Shown in pieces: positions 1 to 35,498 of a DNA stretch of 64,000 bases (position 1 is the stretch's first letter; every line of letters begins with the position of its first letter). A program made the translations under genes and the position numbers. The notes beneath the pieces were generated by a model. It saw only the letters and a program-made list of their open reading frames with translations, did not search any database and was not told where the DNA came from. Origin of the DNA: a virus (lineage: Duplodnaviria; Caudoviricetes); IMG/VR virus record IMGVR_UViG_3300013426_000018, positions 32,001 through 96,000 of that record. The stretch is one strand, 5' to 3'.

Positions 1-937
1 GTCAATTAAATCTTTATAACTTTTTCTATGAATAACAGCGTTCACTCTATCTTTAGAAATTCCTAATTCTTTAGCAATTTCTATCTATTTTTTATTTTTT
101 TGATTTTCTAAAATATAATTAATCTATTCTTGTGTCAAAGGATTTTTTACATTTCCTCTTTTTCTATCTAAGCGCAGATGATTTAGATCATATTTCTTTT
201 TTACTTTTTCTCTTATATCTTTTTTATTTTCGCTTGCTAACGAATTAAATTCTTTTAGATAATCCTAATAAGTTAATCCTTTTTTTAAACGCCAAAGAGC
301 CTTTGAACTTATTTTGAAAATATCTGATAACAATCTATCATATCCGTCCTCTTCTAAGATAATAGACAAAATTTCAAAACAATTCTATTTAGATAATTTT
401 TTTTTCATTATGAGGAACATAATTTTCTTTTAAATTCTCTTCTTTTAAATTAAGTTTTTTAGTATATTCTTGTATTTCATCTTCATTAATTAACTCTAAT
501 CCATAAAGAGTATTTTTGCTTAAATTATCAATAACAGTATGGTCACAATTAAAATATCTTGATAAATATCTATTAATTCCAGAATATCTCTATAAAATAT
601 GATAAAGTATACAAGCCTGATGATAACTAAAAATAGTTTTAGTTCCTTCTCCTCCCCAAGTTTCATTATATCCATTTAAATAACTATTATATTTCTCGAT
701 CATTTTCTATTCTAAAATTAATAATTCCTATTCATTTTTTACTTCATAAGTATCCCAAATAAAATTAAAATTATCTTCTCCATATTTATTATAAGCTCTT
801 TGCAATTTTATCGAATGATGCTACCCATTTTTTAAATCATTAAAATGGTGATATTTTCTGGCGTCTATGTCAATAGTCTACCCAATATACCTTTTTTGAT
901 TTATTTTATTAATTATCTAATATATATAACCTCGCAT
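1..937 (-). CDS. GIY-YIG homing endonuclease, probably intron-encoded (TAG=Gln; runs off the window edge)
   Basis: ATG at 937 gives MRGYIY(Q)IINKINQKRYIG(Q)TID...LQRAYNKYG...LE(Q)KMIEKYNSYLNGYNETWGG, a GIY-YIG signature, with a C-terminal HTH (EIAKELGIS). The frame is open only if TAG is sense. Confidence 0.9.
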
Positions 938-1035
938 ATATTCACGTCCTTGTCTAATTTATTCTAATAGATATAAAATTTAGCAAAAACGTTTCTCTAA
1001 AAATCGACCAGAATAGCGTCATAAATTTTAATTCT
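1..1035 (-). mobile_element. Probable group I intron 3 of terL (5' part only)
   Basis: TerL similarity stops after ...RG(Q)RRHG (codon GGU ending at 1036), just before the expected Walker B, and is followed by a GIY-YIG ORF. The catalytic core is not visible in the window. Confidence 0.65.
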
Positions 1036-3045
1036 ACCGTGTCGACGCTAACCTCTAGAAGATTCTTTGGCCGCAAGATTATCAAGAACAGAATCATTCT
1101 TAAAGATATATTTTACATAGTCTTTACCTTCCTATGTCTTACCTCTTGACCAATTTATTTCTCTCTCTAATGGAGGTATTAGCCTACAAAGTTCCTATAC
1201 CTTTTGAGAAAGGATTTCCGCACTCTATTGTTTACCACCCGATGTCACAAAGAGATGAGCTCCTGGGTATAAGATACATTTTAATATTAAACCTAAAACT
1301 GTTAGAAATGATTTTGAATATGCCAAAATTTTCTATATATTACTATATAGCTTAGACTATATCATCAATGTTTATTTTTTCAAATCTTTTAAATCTTACT
1401 CCATAAAGGATAGTCGTTGAGCCCAATAGATAAGTAATCTATTTTGGTTGCTGATTGTCCCATCGGGAGTTCCCAGCATTTTAATAAATTTTTTCCATTT
1501 ACATGGCCCGCACATAATCTACGGGGAAAAGTTGCATACACGTATTGATAACGCATTACCGCACGCAAAAAACTTAAATCTTTACATTACTGTCTAAATA
1601 ATGCCAATATTAATTGCTCTATCTTTCAATAGAGAAGAGACTATATCTTTATCTTATGAATAAGATAAAATGCTTTTCAAAACTTCTTACTCCTTTACAG
1701 GATAGTCGTTGAACTTATGAATAATTTCTTTAATTTTTAATTCAATTTCTTCTTTAGACCAGGTGTATGGAATTATATATAACTCTATTCCATTATCAAT
1801 ACAATACTACTATTTAATCTTATCTCTTTTCTAAAAAGTTTCTAAACTCCCTTTAAAAAAGTTAGTTTCTTTATAATGCTATGCTCCATTAAATTCAATA
1901 GCTATTTTATAAATATTATTTTCTAAATAAAAATCAAATCTTTGTTTACTATTATTTAATCTTTTCTCTTGCTAAAAAGGAATACTATATTTTTGTAGAA
2001 TTGTTTTAATAAAAAATTCTCCATTACTTTCTTTTCGAGCACACTTTGGACAACTACTACGGCCATGAATAATATCTCCCGGGCAGACTTCCCAGATAAA
2101 ACCGCAATCATGTTTTAAAAGAACTTTAGTTGTTTGATTTACATAAGGACTTATTAATGTGTAAGTCCCCCTCTAACTATACTGATTCACTTCATCTATA
2201 AATTCTTTTGCTGTACGATTTCTTTTTACAGAAGTCTAACATCCACATCTCAAATGCCTCTTAAAATCTCTTAAAGTAGTGCATCTTACATGACCGCATT
2301 TTTTACATTTAACAGTATAATAAGTATGAGTACCTTTTACCTCAGTGAACAGAATAATATATTCGTTATTTAATTCTTCTAAGATTTTTTGTCTCTATAT
2401 AAGATTATGACTCTAACAATTACTACATCCATATTTTTTAGATTTTACAAAAAAATTTGAAAATTTATTTATTATAATAATTCTCTAACAGTTATTGCAT
2501 TTAACTTTTCCAGGTTTACCTAATCCGTTATATTCTAAAATATCAAAGTCTTCTAAAGGGAATCTCTACTTTATTCGATCTTGAATCTCTATTAAAGTTA
2601 ATTTTTTCATTATTCTCTCCTTCATAAGTGCTGATTATCTATTATTAGAACTTAGGCTTACACCTTATTCCATCCAAAAACTTTTTTCTACTTTCGTTCT
2701 TAATTAATTTCGAGAATTAAAAATTAATTAAGCATTTTGGCTTTAAGACTTCCCAGCGTTTAACATTTTTTTCTTTAACCCTTTTAGGCTAAAGGAGCTA
2801 TTTTTAACCCGCTAATAATAGAAAAACTTAAACTTGCCTTCGTTTTCCTTTTTTTCTTCTGGAGTAAATTCTTCCCCAGTAATGACTTTTGGCCCATAAA
2901 CCAAAAAATCAATAAATAAATCTGGGTATTCACGCCAGAAGGCAATATACTTGCGCAAAATGGGCTTTACTGCTTCAATACGTTCTTCTGATATGCCAAT
3001 TTTTTTCTTTGTATTAGATAACTCAAGCAAATCTTGGAGAGCCAT
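1036..3045 (-). CDS. terL: Terminase large subunit, N-terminal ATPase part, spliced (exons 3045-2807, 1572-1521, 1323-1036; continues beyond the window)
   Basis: Joined exons read in frame: ...KFFYY(Q)RV|FLRAVMRYQYVYATFPR|AYSKSFLTVLGLILKCILYPGAHLFVTSGGKQ(Q)SAEIL...SSRG(Q)RRHG. This contains an adenine-binding YQ motif and a Walker A-like PRAYSKS. Confidence 0.9.
1324..1520 (-). mobile_element. Group I intron 2 of terL, ORF-less, 197 nt
   Basis: P1 CCCGU/GCGGG with a U.G splice pair; P UGCUGGGAAC, Q AAUCAGCA, R CUCAACGACUA, S GAUAUAGUCU; terminal G at 1324. Removal restores FPR|AYSKS. Confidence 0.92.
1573..2806 (-). mobile_element. Group I intron 1 of terL, 1234 nt, carrying an endonuclease ORF
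   Basis: P1 GGGU|UA..UA GCUC; P CGCUGGGAAG, Q AAUCAGCAC, R GUUCAACGACUA, S AAGAUAUAGUCU; terminal G at 1573. Removal restores GU|U (Val)-FLR. Confidence 0.92.
1687..2610 (-). CDS. Intron-encoded endonuclease: Zn-ribbon repeats plus Vsr-like/DUF559-type PD-(D/E)XK domain (TAG=Gln)
   Basis: MKKLTLIEIQDRIK... with several CxxC motifs and C-terminal ESNGEFFI..RFDFYL..IAIEFNGA(Q)HY..RDKIK..YC..NGIEL..IPYT. The 3' end overlaps the intron R element. Confidence 0.85.
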
Positions 3046-4685
3046 TAATCGGGATTCTCCTTAACAAATTGTCGCAATTCATCTTCATCCATTTCTTGAG
3101 ATTGGAATTCCGCAAAATCTTCAAAATCTTTATCAGTAGTTATCTAACTTTCGATATCTTCCATTGCCATATCATCAAAATCAACAATATCATTTTCATT
3201 TTTAGCTTCAGCGTCTTCTTTTGCATTACGCTCAATAGCAGCTTGAAGTAATTCATTTAAATTAGTTTCTTCTTCAACCAACCTACGAGTATAACGTTGC
3301 ATATCTTGAAGAGTTATATCAACTCTATCATTTGGCTTATCTGAGTAAAATCTTTCAATATAACCATCTTTTTCACAAAGAGCAATTAGCTCTCCAACAG
3401 AATCAACACATTCACCATTTTCTGCTTTATTCTGAGCGGCTGTACATAATTATTAAATTACTGACTATTTTTTACTTATAATTAAATATAAGGAAATCAT
3501 TTCAAATTGCGTATCAATAGCAATCTTACTTTCCCGCCCAAAAGGCAAAGGAAATAGTCGATACAGGTTTATGCGCTAAGGCACATATTTCCCACGAGAT
3601 TACTTTATAGTTCCCTCGTTAGCTTAATTAAATATTAAACCCCAGTGATAAACTGGAAAAATTTTTCATAGTCCACAATTTGAACTTACCACTTTTCATA
3701 AGAGCATCATAAACTTTGCTCATCTTCTAAAAGCCATCTACCATAATTTTCTTTTGTTTCCAAAAGGATCAGACTATATCATCTACAAAAGTAGTTCTTC
3801 ACTTCCAAATAATTGTACTTCCTTGCGGAATAGTCGTTGAACTTTTTTGCCCATGGCAATTTTAGTTGCTGATTACCTATACGGCTTCCAGCAGTTCAAA
3901 GAATTTAATGGGGACGTAGTCCCATCCCCAATATCAATAAGCTAATTCATTTTTAGAGATGTCTTACAAATAAATTTTAATGTATCAACATGCCCAGCAG
4001 TCTAAATATCATAGGACTCCATCATATCATTATATAACTATTCAAGCTAAACCCATTCGGCTGGTTTATAGCCTTTGCCCCATTTAAGACGCAATTGGAG
4101 CTTTTCTTCATCAGTTAAATCAATATCTATGTCTGGAGTATCATCAACTTCTGTAAAATAGTCGTCCTAAGGCTGGCTAGAAAATTTATTAGCTTCCACT
4201 GGCTCAGGTTCATTAACATAAGCCGGAATTGCGATTTCTTCATCCATATTAGGAATAAGGAATTTGGGGTCATCAAGAGCTTTGGTAATTTCCTATTGGT
4301 CATAACCTCGGTCTTTCATAGCCTATTTTAATTCATTTTGTTCTTTTTCTTTTAAAAATTCAGTGTCTTTCCAACGATAATCTTTATACTAGATCATTCG
4401 CATTTTGCCAAGATACCTACCTATAATAGTTGCTCCGGTCAATTTTGTTTTATCCCGACCGTATTTCTCCATTAGGCTATACCATTGACTAGGTATATAA
4501 GGAACATCGGCTTCTTGCAGAATCCACATATAAGTATCTGGGTCCCAATTGTTGACGTGCATTGTTAAACATTTTTTACATTGATGGAATTTCCCATCGG
4601 GATATTTTTCTAAGTTATTAGATGAATAGAAATTTTTTTCATCCATTGTTTTGTGGCATTTTTCACAATATAAAGTCATTGCCAT
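3045..4685 (-). CDS. Zn-finger protein directly upstream of terL (candidate terminase small subunit), spliced (exons 4685-3924, 3741-3683, 3444-3045), TAG=Gln
   Basis: Joined frame ...KTSLKMN(Q)LIDIGD|VDGF(Q)KMSKVYDALMKSGKF|TAAQNKAE...KENPD*. The stop overlaps the terL ATG (TAATG). The TerS function is inferred from position only. Confidence 0.8.
3445..3682 (-). mobile_element. Group I intron, ORF-less, 238 nt (core differs from the other introns)
   Basis: P1 AGUU/GACU; GCUAACGAGGGAAC..CUCGUGGGAA; R CUGUAUCGACUA; S AAAAUAGUCAG; terminal G at 3445. Removal restores UU|U (Phe). Confidence 0.85.
3742..3923 (-). mobile_element. Group I intron, ORF-less, 182 nt
   Basis: P1 GGGGAU/GUCCCC; P UGCUGGAAG, Q AAUCAGCAAC, R GUUCAACGACUA, S GAUAUAGUCUGA; terminal G at 3742. 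Removal restores GD|VDGF. Confidence 0.9.
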
Positions 4686-4689
4686 AACA

Positions 4690-5787
4690 TTATTCCTCCT
4701 TTACTGGGAAAGAATCTGTGCTGGATTGCTTTAACCTATTTTGCCCTAACCGCGAATTACGGCAGCATTTACATATACTATAAAAGCCATCAGGAGCTCC
4801 TGGATTTTTACTAAAGTATTTGCCATGAGCTAACTTAACTTGCCCACATCGTCCGCACTTCTTATATCTACCTTTTTCTTCATTAAGATAGTAATAATTG
4901 AGAAACTCATCTTCGGCACAAGAAGCAATTATTTTAGGAATTTTATTACGCCACAAATTAGAAATATACTCAATACTATGCTTTATGCCAAATTCTTTTT
5001 GTATTTTTTCTTGAATTTGAATATTGCGTAACCCATCTACTTTATACTCACAAATGCGGTCATAGAGAGGGTAATTTTTTAAAGCCTTGTCAGCAAGTTT
5101 ATCAAAATCATACATTAAATACCATACATCTTTTTCAAACTCACCCCAGGCAGCTTCTTTAAGCCCACTATAATTGCAGAGAATTGTCGAAACAATTTTA
5201 GGATTCATAAGTGAAATTCCAGAAGGAATAACATAACCATCTTCATCAAAGGTAAAAGCGTCATCCATTTTTAAAAGATAGCGTGAACGAGTTAATTTTG
5301 TTGCGGTGATGGGCTTGCGGTATGCACTTTTTATGACATACTAGTCTTTTCGCAAATCAATAATGGTTTTTTTAATAATATATTTATCTCGACCTTGGGC
5401 TTTTTGTAATCTTTTTTCCCAATCACTAATAGCTTCCCGCACCTAAATTAATTCAGGGATTTCAATTAAATCTTTTTTAGTTATTGATATCTTTGGCTAA
5501 AAAATAGAATTTTTGTTGTCATTTATTAAATTATAAATACCATCTTCGCCATTTTCTAGCTAAGAAACAAGACCTTCATAAGAAGTTTCTCTTTTCCCGA
5601 TTGTAGCCATGCGATTATCAGTAATTAATTTTCGCTATTTTCGTTCTTGTTTCTCCATACAGAGGCATAAGTAATCAGCTAAAACCTCAAGATAAGCCGC
5701 AGGAGGATTTGGATTATCTTCGAGAATTTGTTTAACTAATTCATTACGTTCTTCTGGAGTCTACAATGTATAATCTAATTTTAACAT
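4690..5787 (-). CDS. Phage protein with HTH-like region and C-terminal Zn ribbon, 365 aa with TAG=Gln; first gene of the packaging operon
   Basis: GGAGG RBS plus ATG at 5787 (MLKLDYTL(Q)TPEERNELVK...) is in frame with track ORF 4690..5268. C-terminal CGRC..CKCC. Confidence 0.8.
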
Positions 5788-5811
5788 TTTTGACCTCCAT
5801 TCTACAATTAT

Positions 5812-5902
5812 ATTATACCAAAAATTTTTTTGGCATTCCAGAAAAAATAAGTAAAGTATTAAAAAAATTTTATTTGATATTGAAAAAAATTTTTGGTATA
5901 AT
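5812..5902. promoter_or_regulatory. Divergent sigma-A-type promoters (leftward packaging operon, rightward small genes)
   Basis: Minus strand TGGAAT-N17-TATAAT with TG extension at 5840-5812; plus strand TGGTATAAT at about 5894-5902. Confidence 0.7.
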
Positions 5903-5908
5903 AATTAT

Positions 5909-6163
5909 ATGAAAGATAGGAACTGGATAGCATACATAGAAATAGGTAACTTTCCTGCGGAAAGTTACCTAGTCCTTAAAGGAAAGTTACCAATAGAGAA
6001 AGAAAAAATTGACATTTATTGGTATGAAGAAGATATCACCCCTAAAGAATTTGCGGGTGAAGTAAATGATTTATTAGAATTTTATGATACCGTGGTAATG
6101 GCTACACCATTACCCAATAATTTAAGAAAGGAAGTAGAGAAATATGGAAATGAAGCTGAATGA
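5909..6163 (+). CDS. Hypothetical protein
   Basis: ORF immediately after a promoter, overlapping the next gene. Confidence 0.6.
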   Translation: MKDRNWIAYIEIGNFPAESYLVLKGKLPIEKEKIDIYWYEEDITPKEFAGEVNDLLEFYDTVVMATPLPNNLRKEVEKYGNEAE

Positions 6164-19760: not shown

Positions 19761-20399
19761 ATGTCTAAAAAATACGAAAAAAGTTTTCCCGCAGACACTT
19801 CTTTAAATAAAGATGCTGAAGGGAATTTAATAAAAACATTCTTAAACGATCCTAAAGCCGATGCAGAACTCTATGCTTATTTATTATCAATGTCAAAAGG
19901 TGATAAAGAAAAAAAAGAAACAATAGTTTATAAAAATACTTTACCCTCTTAGTCATTCATAGCAACAGAAATTCTTCATTATAAAAGTCGTCGAACAGTT
20001 ATTAACCATTTAAATTATCTTAAAGAGCAGAAATATGTTATAGACGAAGGTGAATATTATATTTTACCCAATAAAGAAAAAATGTATTTTAAAATTCCTC
20101 AAGATTTATTAACTTTTTTCTTAACTACAGTAAAAGAGCCTGTTATTAAAACTTATATCTATTTGGGGTAGAGAAATAACTATAAACCTAATCAGTATGT
20201 TTTTACATTAAAAGAAATATGCGAACATTTAGGTTTATGTTACTCAAAAAACAGTGAAACTATTAAAGATTATCTTTTTATTTTAGAACAGTTAAAACTT
20301 ATTAAAGTTGTTAAATTTTATGAAGGAAATATTCCTAAAATGCGATTAATTCATTTTACTACTGAAATATCAAAAAGAGAAAAATATTTGATTGATTAA
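19761..20399 (+). CDS. Tandem winged-helix protein A (Rep-initiator-like), 212 aa, TAG=Gln
   Basis: Two HTH-like motifs (PS(Q)SFIATEIL..SRRTVINHLNYLKE; FTLKEICEHLG..TIKDYLFILEQLKLI); close paralog of 21002. Confidence 0.8.
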
Positions 20400-20402
20400 C
20401 CA

Positions 20403-20489
20403 TGTGAAAAAATAGTTAATTAGTGTGTGAAAAAATAGTTAATTAGTGTGTGAAAAAATAGTTAATTAGTGTGTGAAAAAATAGTTAAT
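20403..20489 (+). repeat. 23-bp tandem repeat, about 3.8 copies (iteron-like)
   Basis: TGTGAAAAAATAGTTAATTAGTG perfect copies at 20403, 20426, 20449 and partial at 20472, followed by AT-rich AATAATACTAAATAA repeats and a hairpin. Confidence 0.95.
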
Positions 20490-21001
20490 AATTCTAAATA
20501 ATACTAAATAAACTTAATAATACTAAATAAGCGGTTATTTAATCAAATCGCTTCGCTCATTGATTAAATAACCTTAAGGGACTCGCACATCAAATTTCAG
20601 TTGAAAATTTCAAACATTCCTTGCCCTTCGGGCAATTTTTATTACTTTAATAGAAATCTCCCTTTTTTACTAATACCAAGAAAGAGCCTTGATTTCAGTA
20701 ATTTTGGGAGGTTTCTATTACTTTAAAAGATTCCATTAAAGAACCTTCCAATAGATAATAAAAAATAAGAAGACATAATAAAACAAGTACTGTCCAAGAG
20801 AGAAAAAATGTATTATATGTGGAGCAAAGCTCCATCAAGGGAGGCCCTCCCTTATTATATCATAATTTTTTATTAAAAGCAAATTTGTTAAAAATATTTG
20901 TTAAAAAAGTAAGTATGAGTATGTTAAAAAATCATAACAGCTTTGGGCAAACTTTTTCCAATTACCTTTTTCATTTTTCATAATCTTTGAAAGGAGGCTA
21001 T

Positions 21002-21619
21002 ATGTGCCTAAAAAATACGAAAAAAAATTTTCCCGCAGATACTTCAATGAAAAAAGATGAAGAAGGAAGACTTATTAAAACATTTTTAAATGATCCCAAA
21101 GCTGATGCTGAACTTTACACCTATCTTTTATCAATGTCGATAGGAGAGGAAGGAGAAACTCGAGTTTATAAAAATGCCCTTCCCAATTAGGAAACTATTG
21201 CTACTAAAATTTTACGGTATAAAACTCGTAGAACTGTTTATAATCATTTAAAGTATTTAGAAGATTAGGAATATGTTCAAGACAAAGGTAAATATTATTT
21301 ATTACCCAACAAAGAAAAAATGTACTTTAGAGTACCACAAGATTTACTCTCTTTCTTTATTGATACTGTTAAAGAACCAGTTATTAAGACTTATATTTAT
21401 TTAGGACAAAGAAATAACTATAAACCCAACTAGTATGTTTTTACTATTAAAGAAATATGTGAACATTTGGGAATTAGTTACACTAATAATTCTTCTTCTG
21501 TTAGAAATTACTTAACTGCTTTGGAAAAATTTGAATTAATAAAAACAGTAGAGTTTTATGAAAATGAAACGCCAAAAATTCGTTTAATAGGATTCTCTAC
21601 TAATAGCCCTAAGAAATGA
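21002..21619 (+). CDS. Tandem winged-helix protein B (paralog of 19761), TAG=Gln
   Basis: Colinear with protein A (FPADTS..LIKTFLNDPKADAELY..VKEPVIKTYIYLGQRNNYKPNQYVFT). The recognition-helix segments differ. Confidence 0.8.
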
Positions 21620-21634
21620 GAATTTGATTCACGC

Positions 21635-21721
21635 TGGGAAAAAAATACTGAAAGGTTTGGGAAAAAAATACTGAAAGGTTTGGGAAAAAAATACTGAAAG
21701 GTTTGGGAAAAAAATACTGAA
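21635..21721 (+). repeat. 23-bp tandem repeat, about 3.8 copies (iteron-like)
   Basis: TGGGAAAAAAATACTGAAAGGTT at 21635, 21658, 21681 and partial at 21704. Confidence 0.95.
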
Positions 21722-21843
21722 CATTCTAACTAAACTAAGAAGTAAACAAAACGGGGAAGCTTTTAACTTCCCCTTAATTCTAAACGTCTCTCTTTTAACA
21801 AAGAGAGACTTAACTAATACTCTCGCGTATCAAATCTTCTCCT

Positions 21844-22533
21844 TTACCAAGCTGACCGCACATAAACCGGCACTTTCATTGGCCAAATACCTGTATCATT
21901 CTAATAAGCTTTTAATCCTTCTAAAAAGCTATGATATCTTATTTGCCCTACTTTTTCATACGCTTCCTATTGGGTATATTCTCCTTCTTTCTACTTAGCC
22001 CAAATATCAGCTTCCTAATCAATAGAATTCTATGTTTCAAAATATGATTTTAATTCATCAATTTCTTTTTTAGTCATTAAAACATATTTATTACGCAGTT
22101 TATCTAAATAACACCATCTATAATCATCCTTAACGTAATAACCTATATTAACTAAATCTTTTAGCTATTCCCGCACATATACTTTTAAAGTTGATAATTG
22201 TAAGTCTAATGCCTATATTTCACCATCAACCATAATAATACGAGCAATATTAGATCCAGTTTGTCTGGGATCAAAATGAATAGTTGATTTAATATGTGAA
22301 GCAATAGTATTATTCTTTTGGAGTTTTGTATATTCCTTAAGAGAAAGATAAGTGCCTTTTTCTTCTGTAAATATATAATAAACACCATTATTTCCTTTAT
22401 GAATTATTTTAAATTCATAAAAACGTTTTAAATGTTCTTCATATCTATCTCGAACCTTTCTAAGCTAATTATAACTAATATTAAGTTCTTGCGCAAGAGC
22501 TTTAGTAGAATACTTTTTATTTAGTTCTATCAT
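21844..22533 (-). CDS. HTH-containing protein, 229 aa, multiple TAG (missed by the ORF track)
   Basis: MIELNKKYSTKALAQELNISYN(Q)LRK...IWPMKVPVYVRSAW*; GGAAGGA RBS. Confidence 0.75.
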
Positions 22534-22594
22534 TCTTTCATTTCCTTCCTATAAGATAATAAATTAATAAAGACAACGTTGTCAGTTTAATTAT

Positions 22595-22788
22595 TCCAAT
22601 AGTCAGTGAAAAAAGAAATAATATTATGATAGAACTTTGTCCTAGGAGAAAAGAAATATACGTTGTTACCTTTTTTTTCGCATTGTATTTATCTTCTATC
22701 GCAAAAAAAAGGTAACAACGTAAATGAATTAGTCAACAGCTGTTACTTTATTCATCCAATAGCCAGTGAAAAAAGAAATAATATTATG
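22595..22788. repeat. 34-bp direct repeat pair flanking a perfect 20-bp inverted repeat
   Basis: TCCAATAG(T/C)CAGTGAAAAAAGAAATAATATTATG at 22595 and 22755; IR TACGTTGTTACCTTTTTTTT at 22659-22678 / 22703-22722. Confidence 0.9.
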
Positions 22789-23000
22789 TGTAGGGCCTAC
22801 CCCCATATATTATAGCATAAATTTTAATTAAAAGCAAATAGGTAAAATATTTGACTATAAAATAGGCAAAATTATACCAGTCCAAAAGGGTAAAAAAGTA
22901 GTAGTTCAAAAATTATTAAATTGCTTGACATAGTTAAACGGTTAATATTTAAGGGAGTCAAGGTTGAATTAATTAAAAATTTTTGACACACCAACTCAGG

Positions 23001-23097
23001 TATTTTAAACTATTTTAAACTATTTTAAACTATTTTAAACTATTTTAAACTATTTTAAACTATTTTTAACTATTTTTAACTATTTTTAACTATTTTT
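23001..23097. repeat. 10-bp AT-rich tandem array
   Basis: TATTTTAAAC x6, then TATTTTTAAC x3 plus a partial copy. Confidence 0.95.
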
Positions 23098-23670
23098 ATT
23101 TTTAGGGGTAGCATAGCTACCCTCTTATTTTACCAATTTACCTCATCAACTAATTTAGTCCTCTTCTTTGGATAGAACCCCAATTTCTCAATAACCATAC
23201 TGTTTGCGTTTTACTCTACTAGCATAGTTTTTAGTAGTATTAAGATTCACCTAAGCTTTCACTTCTGGTACATTATAATAAATCTCACTGCCAACTCTCG
23301 AGCAAGTATCAATTCTTAATTTAGTAAATTTTTCATTTACTAATTTATTGTCTTTAGTTTTTATAATACCCCATCTTTTGGGAACTTCTTCCTTCAAAAT
23401 GATAATCGGCATAACTTTTTAATATTTCAAATTTCTTTTCTCGAGCAGACTTTTGGCCTTTAGAGATAGTTTGGGCCGATTTAGTAGTACTTCGTGCGAC
23501 TAAACGTCCCCGTAGGAAAAAGATTCGTTCTACGAACGGACTTTTAACATAAAACGCAGACTAAGCCAAAAATTAGTTGGAGCTTCGCTCTTACTATCCC
23601 CAGCCTTGATTTTACCAAAAAAATATATTATAATATAAATAAACTAAAAAGAAAGAAGGTTCCCATTCCT

Positions 23671-24096
23671 ATGAATAAATTTTAGCCCTCCCGCATTCTA
23701 TTCTACATCTTATCCTTCTCCTGGGGCATAATCCTCTCCTCTCTAGGAGCCATTGCCTTTCTGGCACTCCGCATCCTAGGCGTCCCTTGGGCGCCTAATC
23801 AATACGGCTATGTAACTTATCTAGGTAAACCCAATTGGGGCGGTTTTACTTTAGGCCCTTTTTCCTTCGTTTGCCCAAACGCTACCCAAGACCTCCTCAC
23901 TCACGAAGCCGGTCATTCCTACCAGAACATGGCCTACGGCCCCATAATGGTGATACTGACACTAGTCAGCATCTTTCACTATTGGATCAGTTGTTTTGTG
24001 CCGAAAGTACAAAACAACTATTATGACTTTTGGCTAGAAGCTGATGCCTCTAAATGGGGAAAGAACATGGGAAGCTTCGCTTCCCCAAAAAAGTAA
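23671..24096 (+). CDS. Membrane HExxH zinc-metallopeptidase-like protein (TAG at codon 5; missed by the ORF track)
   Basis: MNKF(Q)PSRILFYILSFSWG..WGGFTLG..LLTHEAGHSYQ..YYDFWLEADA. Confidence 0.75.
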
Positions 24097-24223
24097 AATA
24101 TGGGAAGCTTCGCTTCCCCAAAAAAATTTTTACTTTATAAAAATTTTATGATATAATATATATAGAAAAAGTTAAGGGAGCTTTGCTCCCTTAAAAAAAG
24201 TTGAAGTAAAAGACCTCCCCAGT

Positions 24224-24747
24224 AGATGCGGTCAATTTACTAACTCCACTATTGGTAATAATCCCTTTGCGGAAGCTATTAAAGACAATTGCCCAAACAC
24301 GCAAGTCTTAGGTATTAGTGAAATAGATGCCCGTCCTCTTAAAGCCTATGAAGTTTTACATGGTCCCCCTAATAATAAACGAATCATATTTAGTAGATTC
24401 TTCTCCGCTTGCCGATATATCTTCTCCTTGTTATACAGCTTCTAAAAAGTTAGCTGATTATAAATCAGGAGGGCAAGGCAACCGCATTTGCCCAAGGTGT
24501 TACTTTAACTGCTTCTGGAGGAGGACATGCGGGATCAAGTGGCGGTCTTTATTTGCGGGAAGGAAATATTTATAAACTTTTTCCAATAGAAATGTGTAAA
24601 GTTATGGGCTGGACTAAAGAAGAAGCTGGAAAAATCTGTTCAGTCCTTTCTCCTCGTGAAGTAGGATTTTGTTTAGGCAATGCTATTGATAGGACAGTTC
24701 TATCAATTTTAGCTAAATCAATAATTGAACAATATAATTTAAATTAA
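24224..24747 (+). pseudogene. Degenerate C5-cytosine DNA methyltransferase remnant
   Basis: N-terminal-like VLGISEIDARPLKAYEVLHG and C-terminal-like YKLFPIEMCKVMGW..LGNAI lie in different frames; no PCQ catalytic motif. Confidence 0.55.
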
Positions 24748-24765
24748 AAAAGGAGTAATTATTAT

Positions 24766-25257
24766 ATGATTTACGATTTTAATGACTTGGAAGCTATGCT
24801 GCGTAATGGTGCTTCTGATGCTGAAATTGCTGAAGCTTTTGCGGAGAACCTTAATCTAGCAAGAGCCGCAGAAGATAAGAGAAAGGCAGAAGAAGAAAAG
24901 AAAGCAAAGGAAGAAGCTGCTAAGGCTGAGGAAGAGAAGCTCAACAAGGAAGCATCTATGCAACTTGCTACTAATGCCGCTGTTGCCCTTAACGCTCTCC
25001 TTATCCATGAAGGCATTTTGCGTGAAGGGGAAGCTTGTTTCCTTCCTGAAGATCTACTCGCCACTATTAGCGATGCCCGCAAGGAAACTGCAAATATTCG
25101 CTCTCTCATCGACTCTGTCGCTGATCTATGGGACACTTTGGGCCTGGGAAGTAAAGCTCCCAAGTGCGAAAAGCCTACTAAGGTAAAGACAAAGATCAAT
25201 GAGGATCTCTCTGACGAAGATATCTTTAATGAACTTTTTAATAAGCTGTTCAAGTGA
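24766..25257 (+). CDS. Hypothetical coiled-coil protein
   Basis: AAGGAG RBS; K/E/A-rich helix. Confidence 0.8.
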   Translation: MIYDFNDLEAMLRNGASDAEIAEAFAENLNLARAAEDKRKAEEEKKAKEEAAKAEEEKLNKEASMQLATNAAVALNALLIHEGILREGEACFLPEDLLATISDARKETANIRSLIDSVADLWDTLGLGSKAPKCEKPTKVKTKINEDLSDEDIFNELFNKLFK

Positions 25258-25332
25258 TAGGGAGTAAAGCTACAGAAGAACAATCCACTTACATCACAGA
25301 ACACTCTGCTATGTCTCCTGGAGGTAATTAAA

Positions 25333-26874
25333 TTGGAACCATTTGAAGTACTATCAGAAACTGATAAAAAAATTTTTCTCCAATATATCAAAGATTTTGG
25401 AGATGCAAAACCCGAAGCTCCTCTCTCTACAATTCTTCGCTTCTGGAATACAAATAAGCAATTTCTCTTCGATGCTTTTGGTCAGAAGCTTATTCTAGAA
25501 AAAGAGATCCAAGTGCGGAAAACCAATGATGAAATTATCGGAAGTTGGAATGATGCTCCAATTTCTCAGCAAAAAGCTTATGAGGACATTGTTTCTGGCT
25601 TACGGACCAAAGCTGAGGAACTTTTTCCAATTCGCCCTGATGAGGCCCGCACAGCTCAATCTTTTGGGTATATTCCTTCACATCCTAATGAATATTATCT
25701 CTTAAGCGATAGATTTCTTACTCGTTCCAATTTTGTTACAAATACTTACTCTGAGGAAACCTTTTATATTCCTACTCGAAACGGCAAACGTATTAAAGTC
25801 CAAAAGGGATGTCATCTTATGCCTACTCTTCGTAAAATTTGTCATGAATTTGGCATCCCCGAAGAGACATATGAAAGCGTGCGTCTCTTCCAGTCTCAGC
25901 TTACTAATAATGCCTATGCTTATGGAACTCTTTGCCTTTCTATTGCCCCCATTGACTTTCTCACTATGAGTGATAATGATTGCAACTGGAATAGTTGTAT
26001 GAGTTGGGTCGATCATACGGGTGAGTATCGGCAGGGCACTATCGAGATGATGAATAGTTCCTGCGTGCTTGTTGCGTATCTTAAATCAGACACTCCTTAT
26101 ATACTTTGGAGCAATAGTCAACCAACCCTTTCTAATAAGAAATGGCGTCAGCTAGTTATTGCCAATAGAGATATCATCTTAGGCAACCGCCATTATCCCT
26201 ATCAATATCCTGACCTAGAAGCTCAAATTCTCTCTTGGGTGCGGGAGTTGTTAGGAGGAGATGAACAATTCTCTTCAATCATTTTACCTATTTGCAATCT
26301 TCTTCATAAGGACAACAACCCAGGAGGCTATGATTACATTTGGGATTTTGAAACCGTTCATATGTATAATGATATTTATGAATGGCGAAATGCTTATCTC
26401 TCTAATAACTTTTTCACTAATTATCCTAAAGAATATTCCCTTAACTTCAGTGGAGAAGCTGAATGTATGTCTTGTGGAGAAGTTATTTACGGTAGTGAAT
26501 TTGATACTAGCTGGGTTAAGTGTATTGATTGTAATAGAGCTTTAATATGTAATAATTGCGGAAGTTTTATTCTTCCCGAGTGTGATGATTACTATACTAA
26601 TGATAATGAGGAAGTCTTTTGTTGTTATTGCGTCCAAAATAGCAATGAAATTTGTATTTGTCCTTGTTGCCAACAGCCCTATTATGATTCCGATCTAGAA
26701 ACTATTGAATATCTAGCGAATGATTCTCTCTATAATCATTTCATCTCTGCTTGTTCTAATTGTTTTCCTGCTTTTGGAGAATTTGGCCCCAAGGATGAAG
26801 ATGGGACTTATAACGCTAAAAACTTTACAACTATCGCAATTGATTTCTGCAATGATTGCGGGGAATATGCTTAA
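25333..26874 (+). CDS. Large phage protein with C-terminal multi-Zn ribbon
   Basis: Motif LCLSIAPIDFLTMSDNDCNWNSCM..KKWRQL..GNRHYPY and repeated CxxC; GGAGG RBS with TTG start. Confidence 0.8.
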   Translation: MEPFEVLSETDKKIFLQYIKDFGDAKPEAPLSTILRFWNTNKQFLFDAFGQKLILEKEIQVRKTNDEIIGSWNDAPISQQKAYEDIVSGLRTKAEELFPIRPDEARTAQSFGYIPSHPNEYYLLSDRFLTRSNFVTNTYSEETFYIPTRNGKRIKVQKGCHLMPTLRKICHEFGIPEETYESVRLFQSQLTNNAYAYGTLCLSIAPIDFLTMSDNDCNWNSCMSWVDHTGEYRQGTIEMMNSSCVLVAYLKSDTPYILWSNSQPTLSNKKWRQLVIANRDIILGNRHYPYQYPDLEAQILSWVRELLGGDEQFSSIILPICNLLHKDNNPGGYDYIWDFETVHMYNDIYEWRNAYLSNNFFTNYPKEYSLNFSGEAECMSCGEVIYGSEFDTSWVKCIDCNRALICNNCGSFILPECDDYYTNDNEEVFCCYCVQNSNEICICPCCQQPYYDSDLETIEYLANDSLYNHFISACSNCFPAFGEFGPKDEDGTYNAKNFTTIAIDFCNDCGEYA

Positions 26875-26889
26875 AAAAAGGAGAATAAT

Positions 26890-27711
26890 ATGGAAGATAG
26901 CCTTCAACAATACCTAAGAGAGATATCTCAATATCCCCTATTGACTCCAATAGAAGAATAGGAATTGACTCAAAAAACCTTCTTGGGCGATGATAAGGCA
27001 CGCCAATGTCTTATCAATTCTAATCTGCGTTTAGTAGTATCTATCGCACGAGCTTATCGTAATTGCGGACTTCCTTTCATCGACTTAATTCAAGAAGGCA
27101 ATCTTGGTCTTATTAAAGCCGTTGATTCTTTTGATCCTTCTCTAGGGACGCATTTTTCAACATATGCTACTAGTTGGATTCGTCAAAAGATTGGACGAGC
27201 ATTAAGTAATGATTCCCGCAATATTCGGATTCCCGCCCATTTAGCCGAGCTACAATCTACTCTTAAAAATGTGTCTTCTAAAGTATTAGCTTCTACCGGC
27301 AAAGAACCCACTAATAAAGAATTAGCGGTTTTGCTCAATTTAGATACTAAAAAAGTCACAGAAGTGTTAAATTGTGATCACGCAATTACATCTCTTGATA
27401 CTCCTGTGGGTATCGATGAAGAAACAACGGTCGGTGATTTAATTCCCGATTCTTTCATCGATGTAGCTAAAACGGTAGAGGAAAAGATTGACGGAGAAAT
27501 CATTAACTCAGTAGTCGATACTCTTTCTCCAAGAGAAAAAGAAGTAATCAATCGTCGTTTCGGATTGCGGGGACAGATGCCCGCAACTCTTGAAGCTATT
27601 GGGCGAGATTTAGGTCTATCTAAAGAACGAGTGCGTCAATGCCAATCTACGGCTTTACGCAAATTGCGTCATCCTTGCCGTAGTAATATTTTAAAGGATT
27701 GTATGTTATGA
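26890..27711 (+). CDS. RpoD/SigA-like RNA polymerase sigma factor with a single in-frame TAG at codon 24
   Basis: Region 1.2 MEDSLQQYLREISQYPLLTPIEE(Q)EL; region 2 NLRLVVSIA..DLIQEGNLGLIKAV..FSTYATSWIRQ; region 4 TLEAIGRDLGLSKERVRQ..ALRKLRHP. Confidence 0.95.
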
Positions 27712-27883
27712 AATATGAAAAATGTGAAGGTGCGTGCGATTATTGCTTCTACGCCAAAAGGAATAAAAAGAAAGAGATAATCGGGTGTGCCTTTGAACCA
27801 CCTAATGACTTGCGAAATGATTTAGCGATTAACCATCATTATTGTCGGCATTTTATGTGCGAGTACGCTAAAGGAGAAAACCA

Positions 27884-28255
27884 ATGCCAAAAAAGACAGT
27901 AAAAACTTGGGATGAAACTGAGCTTTACCTCATTCTTTTTCTTTTGGAATTGGTATTTGGTTACATCCTAAAAAATCTTAATGTTTTTCTAATGCTAATT
28001 CTTTGTATTATCACATCTCCTGGCTGGCTTCTCCTATCTTCTTATATTTGTATGGTAACTCCTGCCTTCCATTTGCGGTCATTTGATCTATTTCTAGTCC
28101 AACATATCCCCGATGATGAGTTTTTTGGGATTCTTCTTCACGATGATAATGGATATCTTATTTACCATTTGAATGATAAGAGTGCGGTTAGCACCTGGCT
28201 TATTGATCACCCCATTAAAGATAAAGGAGTCATTGATATATGGAACAGCATTTAA
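27884..28255 (+). CDS. Hypothetical membrane protein
   Basis: AAGGAG RBS; N-terminal hydrophobic segments. Confidence 0.65.
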   Translation: MPKKTVKTWDETELYLILFLLELVFGYILKNLNVFLMLILCIITSPGWLLLSSYICMVTPAFHLRSFDLFLVQHIPDDEFFGILLHDDNGYLIYHLNDKSAVSTWLIDHPIKDKGVIDIWNSI

Positions 28256-28659
28256 CAAAATTGACCATTGCGGAACCTATTGCTGGCTGGTCCTCTCTTA
28301 AATTGGATAATGATGTTTATGAAGTATCTTACTCTACTAATGCGGGAGTAGATTTTTTAAAAACAGTTTATAAAAATTATATAGACAAGAAAAATGGCAA
28401 TATCTTTGCTATGATATTCGATGCCGAAGAAGTAGGTTGCTTCTATCTTATTCTATGCAATAGATACTTAACCGTATGTTCTGCTGATGATAACTTTGTT
28501 AGACATTATCTTTTTGACAGTGCTAAAGAAATTATGCGTCAGGTATATGCCTCAATTGCCCCATACGCAGATGCTTGGGCACATTTTTTCTATGATGAGA
28601 ATAAAAATTCTATAGAAGAGATTAATACTTTACTCAATCTAATCAAGGAGGAGCTTTAA
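28240..28659 (+). CDS. Hypothetical protein
   Basis: AAGGAG RBS; operon context. Confidence 0.7.
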   Translation: MEQHLTKLTIAEPIAGWSSLKLDNDVYEVSYSTNAGVDFLKTVYKNYIDKKNGNIFAMIFDAEEVGCFYLILCNRYLTVCSADDNFVRHYLFDSAKEIMRQVYASIAPYADAWAHFFYDENKNSIEEINTLLNLIKEEL

Positions 28660-28660
28660 T

Positions 28661-28996
28661 ATGAGCGACTTGTATAAGTTTGAAACTTATAGGGAAGAAA
28701 TATGTGGAGAATGCTTATTTGCCACTTGTGACACTTGTCCAGTTGAACAAACTTATCGAAAACTTCTCGATGAAGAATACGGAGAAGATTTTCATACTCC
28801 TATGACAGTTCATTCTGTTGATTCTAAGCAGTTCCAAGAGAATCTTGAAAAATGGTTAGCTCGAAGGCATAGAAAGGGAGATTTCAAAGCTAAAGCTCGT
28901 AAGCAGAGAGTAATTCCTCGTAAAAAAGACACTGGTTATCTTAAAGATAATATGAGCACAACTAGAAGAAAAATAAAAATGGGTTTTGGCTCGTAA
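28661..28996 (+). CDS. Hypothetical protein with CxxC
   Basis: GGAGGAG RBS; operon context. Confidence 0.7.
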   Translation: MSDLYKFETYREEICGECLFATCDTCPVEQTYRKLLDEEYGEDFHTPMTVHSVDSKQFQENLEKWLARRHRKGDFKAKARKQRVIPRKKDTGYLKDNMSTTRRKIKMGFGS

Positions 28997-29121
28997 GCCA
29001 AAGCCAAGAAAAGGATTACGAGTTTTATTCACCCTATGGACTAAATAAGACAATTTTATAATATCTTCTTTCTAAAAAATAGAAAGAAGATATTTTTTTT
29101 TATAGGAAGTGAAATATAAAA

Positions 29122-30705
29122 ATGAAATTTAATAGTGTAAACTATATAGACAATAAAACAACTATTACTGCAAGTAATCTTAATGATATCCAAAAGGCAA
29201 TACAAAAATTAGGATACTTAAAAGATTCTTATTCAAGAGTTTATTGTTGGGGAGATTCTCTGACTCAGGGTATTGGAGGAAATGCAGCTGGATGGCATTT
29301 AATTAGTTATCCCGCAGTCCTAAGTGAACGCATCGACACTGTTAATTTAGGTATCTTATCAGATGATATTCCTACCATAATGGCAAGAATGGGTTCTGAC
29401 CCAGCTCTTTTACCCGCAGTTACTATCCCGGCTTCTTCTTCTGAAAGTGTTGTCGTTGGAAGTGCTTCCTCAGGTTTTACAACGAAAAGTGGGCGAACCG
29501 CTAAATTGTTAAAATACGGCGACTCAGGCATTAATCCTTGTTATATCAATGATACTCCTTGTATACTTTTTAGAGATTATGACGCAACTGATATAGATAA
29601 TTAGAGCTTGCGTTTACGTCGACTTGAAGATGGAGAAGCTATTACTATTTCCGCAAAAACTCCTTTAGTAACCTATGCGGCCAAGCACTATCGGGATAAT
29701 GGCCTTCATATTTTCTGGATGGGTGCCAATGGTGGTTATGGAGATGATGCGGCACATAATAATTTAGCTTTTAGCGATTATGTAACTCAATTACAAAAGT
29801 GCGTTAATTATGTATTTCCGCAGGATTATTTAATTGTTTATAGTAGAGAAAGAAAAGGTTATGCCACTGATGAGAATGCGGAAATTGCTACTTTAAAAGC
29901 CCAATTCGGAGATCACTTTATTCATTTGGTTCCACAATTAAAAGACAGAGGATTACTATATGGCGAAACCGCTCAATGGGATGGCACTTTAACGAATGGG
30001 ATTCCAAATGTCTTGGACAGCGGTGATGGTTGTCACTTTAGTTTTTATGGTTATATGGCTATTGGCAAAATTATTTGGGAATACGTGCTAAAACGTATTC
30101 AAAAGGCAGAAGCAAGTGATGGAGCGATTGGTGATAGTGTGGGCGATTGGCTATATAAATTACCTGCTCCTGTTACTTTTGGAGATAATAGTTCCGCAAT
30201 TAATACTGGTTTTTAGCCATTCGCTTATGGAAAAGACACTTGGACTGTTGCGGTAAAGTACAAGGATGGCTTACAAGCCAAAGATTCTACTTAGTGGGGA
30301 ACCCTATTATTTAATGAAGTCGTTTCAGGAACTACTCAATTAAAAGTAGCAATTACATCTGCTTCACAATCTTATCCTAATAGCTCAATAATGATTAACG
30401 CAGGAGGAACTGCTTTTAATCCTTCTGATGCTTCATAGAATATTACCAAACTTTATGAAAATGGCTATCACACTTTAATTATTAGTAAAAATATAAATAA
30501 TTATACTATATATTTAGATAATAATAAAGTTTATAATAATTCTTTGAGTTACGCTCAATCCACTAACGGCAATTAGCCTCTTTATTTAGGTGGATGGAAT
30601 AGTGGCTGGGGCATGATAAAAGGAACTGTCTACGATTTAAGAATTTATAATGATTGCTTGACTGATTCTCAAGTGACCGCACTTAATGAGTTATTTAAAG
30701 AATAA
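29122..30705 (+). CDS. Virion-associated SGNH/GDSL esterase with C-terminal LamG-like domain, 527 aa, TAG=Gln
   Basis: Block I WGDSLT, block III WMGANG, block V DGCHF; C-terminal LYLGG..KGTVYDLRIYNDCL. Joins two track ORFs and continues across further TAGs. Confidence 0.85.
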
Positions 30706-31312
30706 AAAAAAATAAGGGGAAGATAATTAAGTCTTCCCCTTTTAATTTATTTAACTATATCAAAATCTGCTTGAGCAGAATCTACTGAGCCATATTTTTT
30801 ATCTAATCTAAGCATTGGCCTAACCCGCACAAATTTACCATTTTTATAAATATAAGCAACCATTTTTTTACCTTCATAAATGCCGCTACTTGTGGTAGTT
30901 ACTCCCGCAACAGCTTGTCCAATGGTTACTTCTTGAGTAGCGGTTTTATTTTTGTGAAGAATGTTAGGCTTACAAGCCACCCATTTAAACATTAAAATAA
31001 TTCCCTTCAATACTATCGGCAAGAGAATCAATTAATTCTTGATAGTAATTTTCAGAAGTTATTAATTCTTGTTGAATAGCTTGAATCTCTTGCCGCACTT
31101 CGGAGATTTCCAAAGTTAACTCCTTTATCATCTCTTCATGTTTGTTTACCAAGTCCATTATATTATAGTTATTACCTTGTTTCATAACCGTGGAAACTCC
31201 TTTCAATAAAGTAAAAATAGATTAGGAAGTTTTTTATTTTTCTTCCTAATCTATTTTAAAAATTATTTCTTTCAATTGTAAGGAGTTACCCAAATTTTTT
31301 ATAAAAATTTAA

Positions 31313-31480
31313 TTACTTAGTATCATCAGTGCCATAAACTTCGCTGACAAGACTAGAAAGCTCAATATACTCATCGTCTGTTAAACGATCAACAGAGTAA
31401 AAAACATCAAGTTTCTTTTGAGCAGCTTCCTTTGTCTTATAAAATTTTCTATTAATAAGAATTTTCATTGCATTATACAT
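31313..31480 (-). CDS. XkdX-like small tail-associated protein
   Basis: MYNAMKILINRKFY..KKLDVFYSVDRLTDDEYIEL; last gene of the tail-fibre cluster. Confidence 0.65.
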   Translation of the reverse strand: MYNAMKILINRKFYKTKEAAQKKLDVFYSVDRLTDDEYIELSSLVSEVYGTDDTK

Positions 31481-31499
31481 TTTATTTTCCTCCTATTAT

Positions 31500-32822: not shown

Positions 32823-32828
32823 AATTAA

Positions 32829-34502: not shown

Positions 34503-34519
34503 TCTTTATTACCTCCTTT

Positions 34520-35497: not shown

Positions 35498-35498
35498 A

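Follow-up and report, generated by a model that had tools for sequence, protein, structure and literature searches.

At this locus, two adjacent genes of a phage packaging module, the large terminase gene (terL) and the gene upstream of it, are broken by inserts that leave some of their coding segments only tens of nucleotides long. The question raised is what these inserts are and how such genes could still be read. We analysed a 64,000-nt stretch of the virus record IMGVR_UViG_3300013426_000018 (the window), which opens inside the packaging module of a 174-kb phage, together with the parts of terL that lie to its left. With high probability, the two genes consist of short exons interspersed with mobile group I introns, six in terL and two in the upstream gene.

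Source phage and genetic code

The source is a complete tailed phage genome of 174 kb from the gut. Its contig ends overlap, as they should if the phage genome is complete and replicating. The sequence is a single contig of metagenome type, and the repeated intron cores described here are known from assembled sequence. A crAss-like affiliation was at first assumed from the size and the TAG recoding, and was abandoned when TerL was instead found to match and group with Geobacillus virus E3, the Enterococcus phage H1-type phages and Phass-1 ('Caudoviricetes code 15 clade'); the phage is not crAss-like. No near-identical DNA was found when the region was compared with GenBank phages by megablast.

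Coverage by long ORFs rose from 0.12-0.53 to 0.64-0.93 once TAG was read as glutamine. There are 9 in-frame TAG codons in terL and 10 in the upstream gene, and because these 19 positions mostly align with glutamine or TAG in the relatives, decoding of TAG as glutamine in the late genes (code 15) is supported. A contiguous tRNA(CUA) was not found in the genome. The sole amber-suppressor tRNA candidate appears to be itself split by an intron: removal of a 220-nt insert, preceded by U and ending in G, gives a 7-nt anticodon loop with the anticodon CUA, and the insert scored 18.6 bits (E 0.036) against the Rfam model RF00028. Maturation of this split tRNA(CUA) would likely be a ninth splicing event.

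Identification of the interrupted genes

The exons and introns located in the window are given in Table 1.

Table 1. Exons and introns of terL and of the upstream gene in the window (U1 and U2, introns of the upstream gene; I1 to I3, introns of terL).
Feature	Position	Strand	Description
Upstream gene exon 1	3924..4685	-	762 nt; N-terminal zinc ribbon; E3 gp12-like, phrog_3314
U1	3742..3923	-	182 nt; ORF-less group I, IA-like core
Upstream gene exon 2	3683..3741	-	59 nt (VDGFQKMSKVYDALMKSGKF)
U2	3445..3682	-	238 nt; ORF-less, divergent group I subtype
Upstream gene exon 3	3045..3444	-	ends with TAA; one-base overlap with the terL ATG
terL exon 1	2807..3045	-	239 nt
I1	1573..2806	-	1234 nt; group I with endonuclease ORF
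terL exon 2	1521..1572	-	52 nt (FLRAVMRYQYVYATFPR)
I2	1324..1520	-	197 nt; ORF-less group I; splits the Walker A motif between FPR and AYSKS
terL exon 3	1036..1323	-	288 nt (AYSKS...RGQRRHG)
I3	1..1035 (window part)	-	whole intron 1293 nt; reaches genome position 31743, which is 257 nt beyond the left window edge

The predicted TerL starts with MALQDLLELS, which is the consensus start among the relatives. Exon 1 aligns to residues 38-79 of E3 TerL, exon 2 to residues 80-96 (residues 78-94 of H1 TerL) and exon 3 from residue 97 to about residue 188, the last exon also matching phrog_15503 (E 2.1e-26). Beyond the left edge of the window terL continues to a total of seven exons and six introns (1234, 197, 1293, 257, 281 and 208 nt, in order), and one of the exons, of 14 nt, encodes the TTAG ATPase motif. 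Two abutting introns I4 and I5, or a direct join giving YINNDK, were ruled out, as the 14-nt exon restores TTAG and matches the intron-less allele of the relative L013. The eight predicted junctions of the two genes lie between genome positions 29797 and 36685, with for example ...ATTTATAT joined to AACTACTGCTGGGT and this to ATAAAGG.... The terL coding sequence of 1.78 kb would give a protein of 592 aa. Aligned end to end, this product was 47% identical to E3 TerL and 46% to H1 TerL, had gaps at none of the six junctions and contained the motifs PRAYSKS, GSMEE and TTAG. The exons are intact, with all frames and the conserved catalytic residues kept.

Neither TerL nor the upstream protein was usefully matched in sequence and profile searches of Pfam, NCBIfam and PDB. 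The predicted model of an uninterrupted relative (71% identical), which was of middling confidence (mean pLDDT 60), had the large terminases T4 gp17, D6E, Sf6, HK97 and P74-26 TerL as its top PDB matches in Foldseek, with E down to 4.7e-13. Among these searches it was the fold search that identified the gene as a large terminase. A portal gene (phrog_2739, E 1.9e-75) lies directly downstream.

In the upstream gene, exon 1 corresponds to positions 6-189 of the phrog_3314 profile (E 3.4e-39), exon 2 to positions 190-210, between the matches of its neighbours, and exon 3 to positions 211-285. The same order was seen with tblastn, in which the three exons aligned to residues 11-188, 189-208 and 209-299 of E3 gp12, and the first two to residues 13-239 and 240-260 of H1_77. 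The predicted spliced product has 406 aa. Its model was of low confidence (pTM 0.36) and matched only uncharacterised zinc-ribbon phage proteins. A preliminary description of this DNA had named it a TerS-position packaging gene. A TerS family or fold was not recognised: the protein had no Pfam or NCBIfam match, and phrog_3314 is annotated as 'unknown function'. It is a conserved zinc-ribbon gene for which nothing but its position points to a role in packaging.

Comparison with intron-less relatives

Comparison with intron-less relatives had been proposed together with the original reading, and was made with 80 IMG/VR loci and with Geobacillus virus E3, Enterococcus phage H1, Phass-1 and MT836163. 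Both genes are uninterrupted in MT836163, Phass-1 and about 70 of the 80 relatives, so the inserted segments are absent from these homologues. Each junction was spanned by a single HSP in 68-76 of the 80 loci and a gap at the junction was seen in none; the junctions of U1, U2 and I2 were spanned in 68, 69 and 71 relatives, and that of I3, between RRHG and GSMEE, in 74. When TerL and the gp12-like protein from the intron-less E3 and H1 served as tblastn queries, every exon was found to be collinear, including those of 52 and 59 nt. The intron-less allele of L013 (95% aa and 85% nt identity) aligned without gaps to 1116 nt of the predicted mRNA, from terL exon E4 through E5 and E6 to E7 with the 14-nt exon among them, and matches the last three junctions base for base.

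Related introns occupy the exact same sites in other relatives (L081 for I1, L024 for I4, L090 for U1), and two of the eight introns, I1 and I3, contain endonuclease ORFs, the other six being ORF-less. Intron-less alleles, occupied sites elsewhere and endonuclease ORFs together mark these as putative mobile (homing) introns.

The preliminary description had placed five inserts on the minus strand, and tblastn put their boundaries at exactly the same nucleotides (Table 1). The micro-exons it had reported align to the E3 and H1 homologues, its 'probable' third terL intron is real, and the split of a Walker A-like motif by I2 was borne out. A U precedes each of the five inserts and a G ends it, in line with the U.G pair and terminal G that it had given for the four complete ones, and their removal gives open frames, provided that TAG is read as glutamine, which agrees with the amber decoding it had called for. 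Its five introns stood, but as a total the number was too low because three more terL introns lie left of the window, and the two genes would need eight splicing events where it had counted five.

Structure of the introns

All eight introns are preceded by U and end with G. The gathering score of the curated group I model RF00028 (50 bits) was reached by five of them, U1 (61.5 bits), I2 (61 bits, E 4.9e-13) and, left of the window, I4, I5 and I6 (84.9, 52.7 and 69 bits). U2 and I3 fell below it, with no match. Exon pairing in P1 amounts to 7 bp in U1 (GGGGAU/GUCCCC, with U.G at the splice site) and I5, 6 in I6, 5 in I2 (CCCGU/GCGGG) and 4 in I1, I3 and I4, of which I1 and I4 have intron-side extensions. 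Since pairings of 4-5 bp arise by chance at 29-54% of U positions, P1 alone is weak proof for I1, I3 and I4. Six introns share, without variation, the core elements UGCUGG...AAUCAGCA (P4) and UCAACGACUA and GAUAUAGUCU (P7).

Two custom core models were also used, R1 for the 3' core and R2 for the 5' core. In I1, scoring of the whole intron with RF00028 was precluded by a 0.9-kb ORF in P6 (1687-2625, 312 aa), which matched the HNH endonuclease family phrog_559 (E 1.9e-51). Its 3' core (1614-1715) scored 78.8 bits (E 3.5e-14) with R1 trained without I1, P4 is GCUG/CAGC, and the two strands of P6 (ACUUAUGA/UCAUAAGU) flank the endonuclease ORF. R2 missed I1 because its P5 is expanded. I3 has a GIY-YIG ORF at 389-937 (PF01541, E 3.1e-9) and a second ORF at 1-420 in another frame, and the two overlap at an A9 run. 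Its 3' core scored 18.5 bits (E 0.025) with R1, P7 (GCAUA/UAUGC) is compensated, and at least four paralogues in the genome share the conserved J8/7 and covarying P9 and P9.1.

U2 gave weak matches to GIR1 (16.8 bits, E 0.15) and R1 (14.3 bits, E 0.17), and none with blastn against phage records. Paralogues of U2 are present elsewhere in the genome, and a three-sequence alignment showed conserved P2, P4, P7, P7.1 and P7.2 with 11 compensatory pairs. U2 keeps GACUA/UAGUC as P7, and no P3 could be placed in it. We read U2 and I3 as two divergent group I subtypes and consider group I introns the right reading of all five inserts in the window.

An Rfam scan of window positions 1-6000 in 'evalue' mode gave zero group I matches, with even I2 unlisted, and the same mode detected U1 in 561 nt; with the default filters, U1 was missed in a scan of 64 kb. 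The core models matched 16 sites in the 174 kb of this genome, compared with 8 in 1.0 Mb of relatives.

Discussion

According to the reading that we favour, the primary transcript would fold into eight ribozymes, and the guide of each would pair with the 3' end of the exon before it and form a U.G pair at the cleavage site. An external guanosine and the terminal G of the intron would then lead to exon ligation, giving mRNAs for the 592-aa TerL and the 406-aa upstream protein. The introns may have arrived by homing at highly conserved sites, which are Walker A, a site shortly ahead of Walker B and one on either side of motif III. I1 and I3 still carry putative homing endonuclease genes, and the other six, of 182-281 nt, are ORF-less predicted ribozymes. 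Splicing itself, its order and any regulatory use are what we infer from the sequence.

That the inserts are not introns, and instead represent inteins, plain insertions in a defunct gene or artefacts of assembly, is highly improbable. Repeated cores could in principle mislead an assembler, but the boundaries reproduce the uninterrupted L013 allele base for base, five inserts reach the curated Rfam threshold and the exons show no decay. Inteins are excluded, since the short inserts (182, 238, 197, 257, 281 and 208 nt) carry stops and shift the frame, their lengths not all being divisible by 3. It is less far-fetched, though still unlikely, that some introns, above all U2, I3 or the I4/I5 pair, are decayed or dependent on a helper, so that they splice poorly, need help in trans from a protein or a further intron, or cause skipping of the 14-, 52- or 59-nt exons, with a crippled or partly functional terL as the result. 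Skipping of any of these small exons shifts the frame, exon skipping and splicing that occurs only in vivo are documented in phage genes (PMC11878797), the model scores of U2 and I3 are weak and the I3 endonuclease is split at the A9 run. Against such decay, reading frames and conserved catalytic residues survive in all exons, each of the two divergent subtypes occurs in several copies whose compensatory changes point to selection on structure, and the overlapping contig ends are those expected of a complete replicating phage.

It has also to be considered whether the introns act as a control device, in which late expression, including that of the suppressor tRNA, waits on GTP-dependent splicing, so that packaging is gated or timed or the late genes are shielded from host interference. 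The lack of a contiguous tRNA(CUA), the CUA anticodon and RF00028 score of the split candidate and the far higher density of core matches than in relatives would fit this, and introns of Bastillevirinae have been suggested to act as switches (PMC11878797). However, the introns are dispensable, because most relatives express the same genes without them; the pattern fits selfish homing into conserved sites, and conditional splicing has left no sign in the present sequence analysis. We regard a control function as rather improbable. Equally doubtful is the boldest form of the claim, in which terL (six group I introns in 1.78 kb, a 14-nt exon for the ATPase-coupling motif) is a candidate for the most intron-dense protein-coding viral gene, the suppressor tRNA is itself split by an intron, and packaging waits at a splicing checkpoint until ribozyme folding and GTP supply mature the code switch and the motor gene.

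The preliminary description called the intron density and the ORF-less mini-introns unusual. The density is extreme, but neither is new in kind, as both have been published in gut phages (PMC7886860, PMC12880540). Zeta/Delta crAss-like phages live in the gut, have genomes of 145-192 kb and recode stop codons in their late genes (Yutin et al. 2021, PMC7886860). Group I introns and inteins reach an 'unprecedented' density in their core genes, as many as 14 introns being counted in one genome and an MCP gene being broken into five fragments (PMC7886860). The present phage resembles them in habitat, size, late-gene recoding and dense group I introns, and differs in its affiliation and in having one gene with six introns. 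The crAss-like introns were found via endonuclease domains (PMC7886860), so that ORF-less mini-introns went largely uncounted. Jug jumbo gut phages have small (about 206 nt) ORF-less group I introns, on average 18.5 per genome, and an intron-split terL with splicing backed by metatranscriptome reads (PMC12880540). Their genomes are of 360-402 kb, with the standard code and terL in two to three fragments, whereas here about 16 or more cores are found in 174 kb, TAG encodes glutamine and terL is in seven exons.

Among the introns described for Twort orf142 and for Pol and TerL of Bastillevirinae are IA-type introns in terL, of which a gene can have as many as three (PMC11878797; Landthaler & Shub 1999 as cited there). 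Endonucleases of the phrog_559 HNH/VSR type lie inside terL introns of this group, a small exon is placed between two introns, and skipping of exons has been reported (PMC11878797). The hosts of these cultured phages are Bacillus and Staphylococcus, their code is the standard one, they have at most three introns per gene compared with six here, and their splicing has been shown experimentally, whereas the present introns are known from sequence. A further likeness is with mitochondrial cox1 of fungi and placozoans, where two reports (PMC5436844, PMC12308204) describe many group I introns at conserved sites with very short exons between them. There too group I introns and micro-exons are packed into a single essential gene, but in organelle and not viral genomes and reportedly with help from maturases and host proteins. 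We conclude that the locus is an extreme case of a known gut-phage habit and that the mechanism is not new.

Gene callers would miss terL here entirely. The PHROG families 15503, 24618 and 26582, annotated as 'unknown function', are terL fragments, and their status probably has the same intron-split cause. Because the default Rfam filters missed U1, phage surveys probably undercount mini-introns. The system opens the questions of how a 14-nt exon escapes skipping and whether the spread of introns is linked to the recoding of stop codons. With eight ribozymes tolerated in two essential genes here and none in about 70 of the 80 relatives, these phages offer a natural pair for the cost of intron load.

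Intron-exon structure of terL and the gene upstream

Five segments in terL and the adjacent upstream gene had been proposed as introns in a preliminary description. All five behaved as inserts, with a U before and a G at the end of each, and their removal gave clean frames. In the intron-less references Geobacillus virus E3 and Enterococcus phage H1 both genes are uninterrupted; their proteins aligned with ours collinearly, exon by exon, and broke exactly at the proposed junctions (2806/1572, 1521/1323 and 1036 in terL; 3924/3741 and 3683/3444 upstream). The 52-nt terL exon encodes FLRAVMRYQYVYATFPR (E3 counterpart FLRVCMRYRYVYATFTR) and the 59-nt exon of the upstream gene VDGFQKMSKVYDALMKSGKF (counterpart IDHFKKLSDAYDKLMHSAKF).

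Genome positions 20001-36800 were examined as stretch L001, whose coordinates exceed those of the window by 12000. Left of the window, terL has three further full-length group I introns, I4, I5 and I6, which score 84.9, 52.7 and 69 bits, respectively, with Rfam. Between I4 and I5 lies a 14-nt exon, AACTACTGCTGGGT, which was located using the ...QIY(I/V)T(T/S)AG(F/Y)K... sequence of homologues and encodes part of I-TTAG-Y. Its last 7 nt also form P1 of I5 (GCUGGGU/GCUCAGC). The gene spans 5249 nt, 66% of it intron, and the predicted spliced TerL of 592 aa aligned end to end with TerL of E3 (47% identity) and H1 (46%), with zero gaps at all junctions. The introns occupy the most conserved sites of the terminase motor: I2 splits Walker A (FPR|AYSKS), as previously noted, I3 lies four codons ahead of the Walker B glutamates (RRHG|GSMEE), and I4 and I5 flank TTAG.

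Sequence libraries gave no name to TerL. For a 71%-identical relative with an uninterrupted gene, the structure model (moderate confidence, pLDDT 60) was matched best in the PDB by the large terminases of T4 (gp17), D6E, Sf6, HK97 and P74-26, the lowest E being 4.7e-13. PHROG 15503, 24618 and 26582 ('unknown function') match E3 TerL residues 2-244, 361-583 and 260-573, respectively, and appear to be terL fragments; the end of PHROG 15503 near the I4/I5 site suggests that terL is split in genomes on which PHROGs drew. In the upstream protein an N-terminal zinc-ribbon domain was modelled confidently, the whole model was weak and its matches were uncharacterised phage proteins. The gene is in the TerS position as described; its TerS identity is therefore a guess from position.

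Features of the packaging region, the split tRNA and further group I cores
Feature	Location or length	Strand	Remark
Sigma-factor-like gene	window 4690-5787	minus	first in gene order
Zinc-ribbon gene, PHROG 3314		minus	between sigma-factor-like gene and terL
terL		minus	after PHROG 3314 gene; runs past window left edge
Small DUF2726-like ORF		minus	after terL, left of window
Portal gene		minus	last in order, left of window
terL exons 1-7	239, 52, 288, 137, 14, 188, 861 nt
terL introns 1-6	1234, 197, 1293, 257, 281, 208 nt
14-nt exon	genome 31348-31335 (window -652 to -665)	minus
Split tRNA	window 63923-64000 into genome 96001-96143 (L012:324-543)	plus	window right edge
Group I cores outside both genes	L005:11119-11374, L005:16965-17696, L005:15662-15781, L009:17253-17432	minus
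Group I cores outside both genes	L007:8328-8510, L006:10198-10407, L008:4254-4378	plus

Evidence for group I RNAs

The covariance-model check suggested earlier placed I2 and U1, the first intron of the upstream gene, above the Rfam curated threshold. U1 (61.5 bits) was found in a 561-nt search only and was absent from the 64-kb gathering scan; fast filters therefore lose such introns, and filter behaviour matters to mini-intron counts. In 'evalue' mode Rfam listed no group I match in window 1-6000, not even I2 (61 bits in 'gathering' mode). An IA-type core is invariant in six ORF-less introns (UGCUGG...AAUCAGCA, UCAACGACUAUCC...GGAGUAA, GAUAUAGUCU). The core of I1, which was outside the training set, matched the 3'-core model built from these six (R1) with 78.8 bits (E 3.5e-14). 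Its P6 helix (ACUUAUGA/UCAUAAGU) encloses a 312-aa ORF of PHROG 559, an endonuclease family also found within terL introns of Bastillevirinae (PMC11878797).

The Rfam group I model RF00028 recognised neither I3 nor U2, and matches to R1 were weak (I3, 18.5 bits, E 0.025; U2, 14.3 bits, E 0.17). Both have paralogues elsewhere in the genome. The U2 type conserves P2, P4, P7 (GACUA/UAGUC), P7.1 and P7.2, with 11 compensatory pairs in three copies. The I3 type conserves CCACGAG, GAAAAGAUAUGC, P9 and P9.1, with compensatory changes; its P7 is changed to GCAUA/UAUGC, and to CGUA/UACG in one copy. The group I reading of the five inserts held for I1, I2 and U1, and with somewhat lower confidence I3 and U2 are regarded as group I introns of other, divergent subtypes. 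U1, I5, I6 and I2 have convincing P1 helices; short P1 helices are common by chance. From the sequence we infer splicing of all eight introns.

In window 389-430 (minus strand) the GIY-YIG ORF of I3 comes to its end in an A9 run, from which a second ORF goes on in another frame. A one-base slip there would join both into an endonuclease of ~330 aa; slippage during transcription, a real frameshift or an error of assembly could each account for the break.

Relatives with and without introns

Both genes are in one piece in MT836163 (55% identity) and Phass-1 (44%), closer relatives than E3 and H1 that also read TAG as Gln. TerL relatives with 49-95% identity are encoded by 80 IMG/VR loci, in ~70 of which neither gene is interrupted. 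Single HSPs, 68-76 per junction, ran across all eight junctions, none with a junction gap. L013, the closest locus (95% aa, 85% nt identity), holds TerL residues 222-592; it aligned without gaps to 1116 nt of the predicted mRNA, across exons E4|E5|E6|E7. The counterpart of the 14-nt exon in this uninterrupted gene, AACAACTGCCGGAT, matches base for base and in frame. Single introns occur in a few relatives and three in one of them; introns at the exact I1, I4 and U1 sites in L081, L024 and L090, respectively, are as expected from homing.

Genetic code and a split tRNA

The source is a single contig of 173,969 bp whose two ends overlap; the window covers its positions 32001-96000. In its first 5 kb the window has nothing but short ORFs under the standard code; with TAG=Gln long frames open there and throughout the late regions, the sequence fraction in ORFs of at least 150 aa rising from 0.12-0.53 to 0.64-0.93. 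There are 9 in-frame TAG codons in terL and 10 in the upstream gene, and conserved TAG positions of both are Q or TAG in relatives. The intron ORFs also contain TAG and are therefore adapted to the phage's code.

ARAGORN found no tRNA(CUA) anywhere in the genome. Deleting a 220-nt U...G insert from the split tRNA leaves a 76-nt tRNA with loop CUCUAAA and anticodon CUA, the genome's only candidate amber suppressor. The insert matched RF00028 with 18.6 bits (E 0.036). Just upstream, at L012:160-258, is a weak match to YrlA (Y RNA-like).

Introns across the genome and in other phages

R1 alone gave 16 distinct cores (E<0.01) for this genome and 8 for packaging loci of relatives totalling 1.0 Mb; with both divergent subtypes included, about two dozen group I cores are probably present in the genome. 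Many further cores lie outside terL and the upstream gene (examples in the table), some of them plus-strand and located among genes at 106-140 kb; introns are therefore not limited to the virion module. Between two virion-gene fragments, a 343-aa ORF (L001:1954-2985, genome 21954-22985, minus strand) adjoins an I3-type core (L001:1852-1960). We read this ORF, from motifs seen by eye, as a putative LAGLIDADG-type homing endonuclease, and with the core it is probably another ORF-bearing intron. The terL-portal interval has two short ORF fragments on the minus strand (L001:9400-9766, genome 29400-29766) that are similar to the DUF2726/VSR-like C-terminus of the I1 endonuclease (PF10881, E 0.005); they may be the decayed remains of a free-standing homing endonuclease.

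The intron density had been called unusual in the preliminary description. Genomes of Zeta crAss-like phages contain as many as 14 group I introns (PMC7886860), and those of Jug phages 18.5 on average; in Jug phages terL is in 2-3 pieces and splicing is backed by metatranscriptome reads (PMC12880540). In cultured phages the number of introns in one gene goes up to three (PMC11878797). Gut phages with dense small group I introns are thus already known as a kind, and what stands out from the published phages is six introns in one gene with a 14-nt exon, in a different lineage and in contrast with intron-free relatives.
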